From contig CAXUUL010000037.1 of NCBI GenBank assembly GCA_964255285.1, forward strand, positions 1 to 50,305: 50,305 nucleotides of DNA. The letters run 5' to 3'. The translations under genes and the position numbers were made by a program. This document shows, in pieces, positions 36,264-37,314 of the stretch. The notes beneath the pieces were generated by a model that did no database searches, was not told where the DNA came from, and saw only the letters and a program-made list of their open reading frames with translations. The stretch's first letter is position 1. The number at the start of each line of letters is the position of its first letter. The DNA is from Ionaspis alba (lineage: Eukaryota).

Positions 36264-37095
36264 ATGGCTCCCAAGATCGCTATCATCTACGTTGGTTCCC
36301 TCCCGTCTCTATTTCGCCGAGTCCATGGGACTCCCACCCACACGACTTCCACCATTGGCAATGCTGACAGAGTTGTTCCTAGTACTCCATGTACGGCCAT
36401 ATTGGCAAACTAGCCGAAGCCGAGAAAGCTGGCATCGAGTCTGCTGGCGGAAAGGTCGACTTGTACCAGTAAGTGGCCATGGAAAATCTCCCTTTTCATT
36501 CCGTCTCAAATAACAGCCAACTGACCCCAAGCGTTCACCAGAGTCAAGGAAACCCTTCCCCAAGAAATCCTCACCAAGATGCATGCCCCAGGCCAAAATG
36601 AATCCATCCCATTCATCACCCCTGACAAGCTCAAGGAATACGACGCCTTCCTCCTCGGCATTCCAACCCGGTACGGTAACTTCCCAGCCCAATGGAAAAC
36701 ATTCTGGGATCAGACTGGTCAGCTCTGGGCGCAGGGCAGCCTCATCGGCAAATACGCTGGTGTTTTCATCTCAACGGCCAGCGTAGGTGGTGGACAGGAG
36801 AGCACAGCCATTGCGGCCATGAGCACCCTCGCCCATCACGGGATCAATTACGTGCCATTAGGATACGGCGAAGCTTTTCCCATCCTTGCCAACCTCGAAG
36901 AAGTCCGAGGAGGTAGCCCATGGGGTGCCGGAACTTTCGCAGTCGGTCCCAGCTAGCCATCCATGCATCGAGTACGTGCTGACCGGTGTTCAGGGTGGTG
37001 ACGGAAGCCGAATGCCAACCGACCTGGAGCTCAAGCTTGCCACTTACCAGGGCAAGTCTTTCTACGAGCGTGTCTCGCGTGTCAACTTCTCGTGA
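36264..37095 (+). CDS. Flavodoxin-like NAD(P)H:quinone oxidoreductase (WrbA/Pst2/Ycp4 family), 204 aa
   Basis: Exons 36264-36290, 36383-36468, 36542-36941, 36994-37095. [41 protein letters not shown] and DGSRMPT; ends RVNFS-TGA. Confidence 0.95.
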
Positions 37096-37314
37096 CTAGA
37101 TGGTGGAGCTCCGGCTGGTGAGCAGGATACACGAAAGCCGGCTGAAACTTCACCCACGGCTCCGAGGGTAGGTGCAATAAATGGAGTAACGGATGGGACG
37201 AGAAGTACGGACGCTCCTGCTGCCGGAAAGCCGACAACCCCACTACAAACTTCAGGAGAGGAGCAGAAACCAAGCGGTCCATGTGGGCTGCCCGTGAAGT
37301 GTGTAATCTTATAA
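37093..37314 (+). other. Putative stop-codon readthrough extension ending in a CaaX motif
   Basis: TGA-CTAG followed by 72 sense codons in frame, ending ...GPCGLPVKCVIL-TAA (37312-37314). Confidence 0.8.

Follow-up and report, generated by a model that had tools for sequence, protein, structure and literature searches.

The stretch of DNA analysed in this work (hereafter the window) covers positions 1-50,305 of contig CAXUUL010000037.1 from Ionaspis alba, and all coordinates are given on its + strand. The window carries a gene that is predicted to encode a flavodoxin-like quinone reductase of the same family as Pst2 and Ycp4 of yeasts. The stop codon of this gene (TGA at 37093-37095) probably undergoes conserved programmed readthrough, as judged from comparison with related sequences. 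Such readthrough would add a disordered linker and a lipid anchor, which consists of a CaaX box and an upstream Cys, and would produce a Ycp4-like isoform from a short-form gene. Most ribosomes would stop at UGA 37093 and release an enzyme of 204 amino acids (aa). A fraction of ribosomes would be expected to read on since UGA CUA G is the leakiest known eukaryotic stop context. Those ribosomes would insert a near-cognate amino acid at UGA and translate 72 more codons. The extension would form a disordered linker that ends with GPCGLPVK-CVIL. The CaaX box would be prenylated, for which X = Leu predicts geranylgeranyl, and the product would then be trimmed and methylated. The conserved upstream Cys would be a likely site of S-acylation. 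The isoform of 277 aa would thus be tied to the membrane as the functional counterpart of yeast Ycp4. We infer the readthrough and its rate, the inserted residue, the lipidation, the membrane location, and any mixed oligomers of long and short forms. With less assurance, we also favour a wider view where one gene has long supplied soluble and lipid-anchored isoforms in most Pezizomycotina classes through an extended 11-nucleotide (nt) signal, UGA-CUR-SAU-GG.

The coding sequence (CDS) ends with TTC-TCG-TGA-CTA-G, where TGA is followed by CTA at 37096-37098 and by G at 37099. The stop and its context, TGA-CTA-GAT-GG (37093-37103), are the modal form of the 91 related loci listed that are described below. 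The frame is open for 72 codons past TGA (37096-37311), from LDGGAPAGEQDT to SGPCGLPVKCVIL, and TAA at 37312-37314 would terminate the extended form. The domain and the extension are not one uninterrupted open reading frame (ORF), as the TGA at 37093 intervenes. In-frame translation gives a linker of 60 codons rich in P, A, T, G, and E (37096-37275), followed by the C-terminal motif GPCGLPVK-CVIL with the upstream Cys and the CaaX box (37276-37311), which was recognised from the translation and from the endings of relatives. The tail ends with GPCGLPVKCVIL-TAA. A second Cys is located six positions before the CaaX Cys and a Lys is located at -5, and both recur in annotated long forms. An earlier note on this DNA had described the TGA-CTA-G end, the 72 open in-frame codons ending with CVIL, and the second Cys six residues upstream. 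Its coordinates and sequence are exact, and the second Cys is seen in the sequence.

Copies of the heptamer TGACTAG are no more frequent in the window than expected (three found against 5.3 expected), and neither of the other two copies is located at the end of an ORF. The case is therefore built on the location of the motif and its comparison with relatives. No stable RNA structure was seen in the 100 nt past the stop in the window and 21 related loci (mean z of -0.09 with a crude shuffle), and a downstream stimulatory hairpin was dropped for want of a structure signal. Insertion of selenocysteine at UGA was rejected because fungi are without the machinery (PMC4207609). A separate downstream gene was also rejected, as the tail is without a conserved in-frame start and follows immediately behind the stop. 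In an AlphaFold model of the readthrough product of a relative, the domain folds as alpha/beta, and residues 209-252 are without secondary structure and have predicted local distance difference test (pLDDT) values below 50.

Related loci were identified by scanning metagenome contigs for the back-translated ending GPCGLPxKC-x-x-x-stop, and at least 117 loci were found. The counts that follow (n = 117, 109, 108, 96, and 91) are those among the matches listed, and further loci exist. The tail-end motif is the search key, and lineages with variant endings are missed. Each locus was walked upstream in frame from the tail-end motif to the first stop. Eight of the 117 loci reach the contig edge and one (L107) is an unrelated chance match, which leaves 108 informative loci. 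In 96 of the 109 loci that reach a stop, the tail ORF is bounded upstream by one stop that immediately follows the final helix of the domain (...QGKxFYExVxKVNFA and variants). This stop is TGA in 93 loci, TAG in two, and TAA in one. The codon after the stop is CTA in 63 loci, CTG in 19, CTC in eight, CTT in one, and another codon in five. Three loci examined by eye (L002, L020, and L055) also have the TGA-CTN arrangement, and TGA-CTN right after the enzyme domain is found in 94 of the 108 informative loci. A sense codon at the stop position was found in none of these 108 loci. The orthologues thus keep the stop, mostly in a TGA-CTN context, and this comparison named in the earlier note comes out in its favour.

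The 91 loci with TGA-CTN found by the walk make up the core set. Clustering by tail identity separates them into 76 groups at 98% and 59 at 70%, so they represent many lineages and not one sequence sampled again and again. The loci closest to the window among those listed (L009, L010, L032, L012, and L065) have approximately 73-75% nucleotide identity over exon 3, and all are of the TGA-CTN type. The tails of the relatives have 44-106 codons. The comparison shows that the stop, its context, the frame, and the putative CaaX end are kept across about 60-76 distinct Pezizomycotina lineages. The stop is kept in about 100 sequences though one base change removes it, which argues that both forms and their ratio matter.

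Several loci depart from the common arrangement. L024 has TAA-CTC, L027 and L066 have TAG-ACC and TAG-ATC, respectively, and the transcript-like L063 has TGA-TCG. All four keep the in-frame tail, and readthrough in them, if any, would need another context. Three of the 108 informative loci (L030, L031, and L053) are frame-disrupted copies. L030 and L031 are located on one contig of 4448 nt that carries two inverted copies of the 3' part of the gene with the frame between domain and tail disrupted, as judged against the intact, near-identical L051 and L096. An assembly artefact or a pseudogene pair that arose by duplication could account for this contig.

The nucleotides past the stop are conserved in the core set up to +11, with the consensus TGA-CTR-SAT-GG. 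C at +4 and T at +5 are present in all 91 loci, as CT after TGA is invariant in this set by definition. A is present at +6 in 63 loci, G or C at +7 in 46 and 36, A at +8 in 78, T at +9 in 82, G at +10 in 87, and G at +11 in 69. This conservation involves synonymous sites. CTA follows the stop in 63 of the 91 loci and makes up only 38 of the 502 Leu codons (7.6%) in the domain ORFs of the same loci, which is an over-use of about nine-fold. TTA and TTG follow the stop in none of the 91 loci, compared with 80 of the 502 Leu codons in the domain. The second codon past the stop is NAT in 71 of the 91 loci and NAC in none, and NAT makes up only 22-32% of such codons in the domain. UGA CU(A)(G) has been reported as a short element that is sufficient for readthrough in Ustilago maydis and human cells, where Trp, Arg, Cys, or Ser have been reported at UGA on readthrough (PMC4207609). 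More distant positions also affect readthrough (PMC12233894). The conservation of ATGG could be an extended readthrough signal or something else.

Two further observations concern the nucleotides behind the stop. A-T-G-G at +8 to +11 provides an ATG in frame +1 in 70 of the 91 listed loci, which opens short, variable ORFs with a median of 22 codons. The codon use also shifts in the tail, where NAT makes up 61-70% (50% for four Tyr codons) compared with 22-32% in the domain, and TTR makes up 53% of the Leu codons compared with 16% in the domain. This shift fits a stretch that is rarely translated.

The tail evolves as a protein-coding sequence. Over the tail, only 14 of the 91 core loci listed are free of stops in frame +1, and only five in frame +2. 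The ratio of nonsynonymous to synonymous substitution rates (dN/dS) was calculated for 12 disjoint pairs of related loci, two of which duplicate each other, with the 12 codons fixed by the search pattern excluded. The tail has a mean dN of 0.104 and a mean dS of 0.363, which give a ratio of 0.29, and the last 30 codons of the domain have a ratio of 0.25. The tail dN/dS is at or below 0.41 in 11 of the 12 pairs. With one duplicate pair dropped (11 pairs), the ratio is 0.44 in the half proximal to the stop and 0.20 in the distal half, and the same nucleotides in the two alternative frames give 1.15 and 1.21. The tail is also more conserved than the 3' untranslated region (3'UTR) in 11 of 11 pairs. 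These ratios indicate that the tail is under frame-specific purifying selection as a putative coding sequence, and the proposed stop-free extension with synonymous bias is borne out.

These results bear on a reading of the arrangement as functionless, in which the window would hold a recent nonsense mutation, a sequencing error in a Ycp4-like gene, or a chance open frame in the 3'UTR. A single window cannot exclude such an origin, and the frame-disrupted L030, L031, and L053 would agree with it. The same stop, context, and frame are found in 94 of the 108 informative listed loci, across 59-76 clusters and with no sense codons. Furthermore, a DNA assembly run (X2) has identical letters at a depth of about 125, though X2 may be the source of the window itself. 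We consider an accident or error refuted by the conservation of the stop, context, and frame in the listed relatives, and an absence of function is scarcely credible.

The predicted lipid anchor is supported by the ending of the tail. The window tail ends with C-V-I-L followed by a stop, which places Cys at -4, an aliphatic residue at a2, and a permitted X as the final residue. The a2 residue is I, V, or L in 91 of the 91 core loci listed, though the search pattern does not require it, and the terminal CaaX is in this respect kept as proposed. The X residue in the same loci is L in 39, M in 23, S in 18, Q in five, and a few others including V and A. The CaaX rule assigns geranylgeranyl to X = Leu. 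The proposal of an ending typical of geranylgeranyltransferase I substrates fits CVIL in the window and does not extend to all relatives, where X varies and the type of prenyl group is thus not fixed.

The closest known counterpart of this tail is that of yeast Ycp4. In C. albicans, Ycp4 is extended by about 90 aa and terminates with CAAX (PMC4556627), and S. cerevisiae Ycp4 is palmitoylated (PMC7943015; bioRxiv 2023.04.27.538084). The comparison of short Pst2 with long, lipidated Ycp4 that was drawn in the earlier note agrees with these reports. Ycp4 and the product predicted here belong to the same enzyme family and share a C-terminal extension past a domain of approximately 200 aa that ends with CAAX, which is the case here only if TGA is decoded. 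They differ in that the yeast tail is part of an ordinary ORF of a separate paralogue, whereas the tail here is located behind a conserved stop in a short-form gene. The two tails are likened by description and not by sequence. Ycp4 is located at the plasma membrane or eisosomes. Flavodoxin-like proteins are found at the plasma membrane (bioRxiv 2023.04.27.538084; PMC4556627), where a proposed role is to maintain ubiquinone in its reduced state and so guard against lipid peroxidation (PMC4556627).

A tail that is translated by readthrough could instead use its Cys motif for metal or partner binding or as a degradation signal. GPCGLPxK is kept more tightly than a plain second lipidation site needs, and the variation of X among L, M, S, Q, V, and A does not imply a single prenyltransferase. 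On the other hand, Cys at -4, the aliphatic a2, and the terminal position fit the CaaX rule, and the CAAX end and palmitoylation of yeast Ycp4 as well as the location of the family at the plasma membrane agree with an anchor. We regard a role other than anchoring as unlikely.

Annotated proteins were also compared, where 120 listed homologues have 234 aa or more (P0003-P0122). The ending GPCG..CaaX is present in 34 of the 120, and all 34 are labelled Pezizomycotina (Lecanoromycetes, Leotiomycetes, Eurotiomycetes, Dothideomycetes, Sordariomycetes, and Geoglossomycetes). The tails of the window and of Letharia align and have the identical ending SGPCGLP(V/F)KCVIL. The Letharia model (P0004) drops 17 codons around the stop, and this gap gives the impression of an intron introduced so as to skip the stop. 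Translated L051 without VSF-stop-LDGSSASGTK is identical to the Hyaloscypha finlandica model (P0087), whose gap is a 42-nt "intron" with donor GTCTCA that ends with AAG. P0106, from a JGI contig, reads W after VNFA and again after the final CAVL, so two TGA codons were called under code 4. Apparent orthologues are thus filed either as proteins of 204 aa, as in some lichen fungi, or as proteins of about 240-300 aa with doubtful introns. We flag this as a systematic annotation error, with models that either terminate after 204 aa or bridge the stop with invented introns. A protein search of the last exon and tail against longer proteins gave no match at E <=0.01, with a conserved part that is short for the size of the database.

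Transcript-like contigs of relatives run through the stop. The first 80 listed loci (with 900-nt flanks) were examined for an intron-free CDS where the contigs have at least 650 nt upstream of the stop. An uninterrupted CDS of 203-204 codons (MAPK... to TGA) is present in nine of the 13 contigs of 1.6 kb or less, in none of the 15 contigs of 1.6-5 kb, and in none of the 28 contigs above 5 kb. The nine intron-free contigs consist of 44-171 nt of upstream sequence, the CDS, the stop, the tail, and 89-468 nt of 3'UTR. All nine keep the stop, which is TGA-CTN in eight and TGA-TCG in one. These contigs look like assembled mRNAs of relatives, and their extent into the 3'UTR agrees with the proposal that the mRNA runs past both stop and tail. 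For the lineage of the window, contigs of run X1 were used, which is about 98% alike to the window and whose label as RNA is a guess. One X1 contig of 151 nt joins 36941 to 36994, and a second contig of 151 nt is colinear with the window over 37047-37197, across the stop.

Several points weigh against conserved readthrough to a CaaX tail. Translation past TGA rests on sequence comparison and on transcript-like contigs. The RNA-like support in the lineage of the window consists of the two 151-nt X1 contigs, which have a depth of 2-3 and reach only to 37197. The invariance of GPCGLPxKCaaX in the 117 listed loci is built in by the search pattern, and the annotated proteins, which are unbiased in this respect, vary (GPCGLPKCTIS, RFCGLKCVIS, and FPDKCEIQ of Lasallia). 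DNA was compared for one of the 34 annotated long forms, and some of the other 33 may truly be without the stop. One of the 12 pairs gives a tail dN/dS of 1.46, on few changes. Gaps with lengths that are a multiple of three (3n) make up 16 of 35 in the tails and 15 of 87 in the 3'UTRs, in noisy nucleotide alignments. Forty-five GT..AG pairs of 3n length in the window would bridge the stop. Finally, in eight to nine listed loci of one clade the stop falls within a credible intron, which means that splicing can lead to the same outcome.

The last two points belong to an alternative where splicing removes a small intron that contains the TGA and yields the long form, and the unspliced mRNA yields the 204-aa form. 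The public models of Hyaloscypha and Letharia, which bridge the stop with introns, also agree with it. The clade concerned includes L034, L105, L038, L054, and L078, where domain and tail are in different frames and L105 is a duplicate of L034. Four of these five were re-examined and have introns of the form GTGCGT...GCTAAT/C...AAG of about 65-98 nt, with L054 lacking a clear branch site. The stop (TAA or TGA) is located at intron positions 6-8 in the re-examined loci. L017 and L072 share the GTGCGT donor, and L058 and L073 combine this donor with TGA-CTG. In appearance, L058 and L073 are intermediate between loci that splice and loci of the readthrough type. The domain end of the splicing clade, ...AK(A/S)(F/V)GA, matches that of annotated Sordariales, both long (P0061, P0101, and P0116) and short (P0198).

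No convincing intron across the stop was found in the window, and no candidate donor resembles GTTGGT, GTAAGT, or GTCGGT, which are the real donors of the gene. The best candidate bridge extends from 37092 (GTGACT) to 37205, with a length of 114 nt and a TAAC branch site. Neither the stop nor any part of the tail is missing from the nine transcript-like contigs of relatives, and the second X1 contig is colinear over the stop. An intron of this kind would take out the proximal half of the tail, and that half is under purifying selection in frame 0 (0.44 compared with about 1.2). The preference for TGA over TAA and TAG (93:3) and the CTA and NAT at synonymous sites would be left unexplained. We therefore consider splicing quite improbable as the source of the long form in the window. 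The suggestion that alternative splicing might act at the stop is disfavoured for the window and most relatives and appears apt for the one minority clade. From the sequences, the same tail appears to be reached by readthrough in most lineages and by a stop-containing intron in one Sordariales-like clade. A comparable duality is said to have been described by Freitag and colleagues in 2012, where cryptic peroxisomal signals in fungi are reportedly reached by readthrough or by alternative splicing.

Another alternative is A-to-I editing of the mRNA, by which UGA would become UGG in part of the transcripts. The product would be identical and carry Trp at the position of the stop. Fungal A-to-I editing favours U before the edited A, whereas G is present here, and it is known from the sexual stages of few lineages. 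No letter change is seen at 37093-37095 in the run contigs, which is a weak argument as contigs drop rare variants. The conserved CU(A) and AUGG past the stop would be left unexplained by editing. Stop-removing A-to-I editing does exist in Fusarium (PMC13123824), yet we consider it very unlikely to account for the arrangement here, for which programmed readthrough remains the preferred explanation.

The enzyme family, the CaaX tail of Ycp4, and readthrough at UGA-CUA in fungi are already known. The nearest parallel is provided by readthrough that exposes a cryptic peroxisomal targeting signal 1 (PTS1), as described in fungi (PMC4207609), for LDHB (PMC4359377), and for MDH1 (PMC5133446). These systems and the arrangement described in this work share UGA followed by CUA(G), a conserved stop and context, an in-frame extension whose last residues are a sorting signal, and a metabolic enzyme that would reach two locations from one mRNA. 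The arrangement here differs by its CaaX box with an upstream Cys, its long extension that is mostly linker, its context that reaches +11 (SAUGG), and its host group, Pezizomycotina. It is also known from sequence alone. Prenylation signals have been predicted in one Drosophila readthrough extension (PMC3840789) and in the readthrough extension of Arabidopsis MT1C (bioRxiv 2021.11.09.467898). Those cases are similar in that readthrough could append a prenylation signal. As far as the available parts of both sources go, they differ in that they are single-species predictor hits that show neither conservation nor a test of the signal, whereas the arrangement here is conserved across fungal classes.

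In a search that left most subscription journals outside, no literature connecting stop-codon readthrough with Ycp4, Pst2, or flavodoxin-like proteins was found. The same literature search found no prior description of readthrough-derived CaaX anchoring in this family, in line with what the earlier note had stated. If true, this would be the first deeply conserved case of recoding that controls lipidation, and it would set the membrane share of an antioxidant enzyme. Most of the functional readthrough known in fungi and animals appends peroxisomal signals, and a prenylation box would widen its scope to lipid anchoring. The related loci would also provide a natural, widely conserved test bed for how UGA CUA G and its neighbours set the readthrough rate. 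The route by which flavodoxin-like proteins reach the plasma membrane is stated to be unknown (bioRxiv 2023.04.27.538084), and a readthrough-encoded anchor would be a testable answer for filamentous ascomycetes.

The CDS of the short form consists of four exons with 612 nt and 204 codons, from ATG at 36264 to the TGA. Exon 1 (36264-36290) encodes MAPKIAIIY and is followed by a GTTGGT donor at 36291, and its peptide fits the N-terminus of P0004 and the transcript-like contigs. Exon 2 (36383-36468) begins after an acceptor TAG that ends at 36382, has a split last codon, and is followed by a GTAAGT donor from 36469. Exon 3 (36542-36941) encodes the core of the FMN_red/WrbA domain with a translation of 133 residues, and its 3' end is fixed by the joint in the X1 contig. 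Intron 3 (36942-36993, GT..AG) has 52 nt. Exon 4 (36994-37092) encodes, by translation, the end of the 204-aa short form. Introns 1 and 2 were positioned by eye against the Letharia lupina protein (P0004), and the joint in the X1 contig covers intron 3 only.

Exon 3 alone matches Pfam FMN_red (PF03358) with 34.8 bits (cutoff of 24, E of 1.5e-08). It also matches the structure of yeast Pst2 (5MP4) with an E of 6e-48 over all 133 residues and E. coli WrbA with an E of about 4e-34. On these matches, the gene product is classified as a Pst2/WrbA-type NAD(P)H:quinone oxidoreductase that depends on flavin mononucleotide (FMN) and is flavodoxin-like. Pst2 and bacterial WrbA belong to the same family, and the short form here is in the same length class of about 200 aa. 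They differ from the predicted long form in that both are without the tail. Pst2/WrbA proteins are described as tetramers (PMC7943015). The closest named short forms have 203-207 aa and approximately 78-80% identity over exon 3, and they are from the lichen-forming Lecanoromycetes Mycoblastus, Puttea, and Psora. The short form of Lecanora helva has 195 aa and 76% identity over exon 3. The closest named short forms terminate with ...VNFA or similar, and the ...VNFA ending is present in 20 of the 64 annotated short forms of 198-212 aa. The closest named long forms are also from Lecanoromycetes and consist of Letharia lupina with 277 aa at 79% and Agyrium rufum with 277 aa.

Another type of long homologue was also identified. 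Sixty-four of the 120 listed long homologues begin with M(x0-2)CF (MCFPSK in 26 and MCFPGK in 13), and they are from Basidiomycota where named. These MCF-type proteins have an N-terminal extension rich in T, P, S, A, and K, which is 32-77 aa long in the 28 of 64 that have an internal MAPK[IV]A[IV] start. None of the 64 has a C-terminal CaaX tail. Through its N-terminal Cys and an alternative start, the MCF extension may serve as a lipid anchor that takes the role of the CaaX tail at the opposite terminus. The two-form outcome appears to be reached elsewhere by the separate paralogue Ycp4 in yeasts, and possibly by the N-terminal MCF extension in Basidiomycota.

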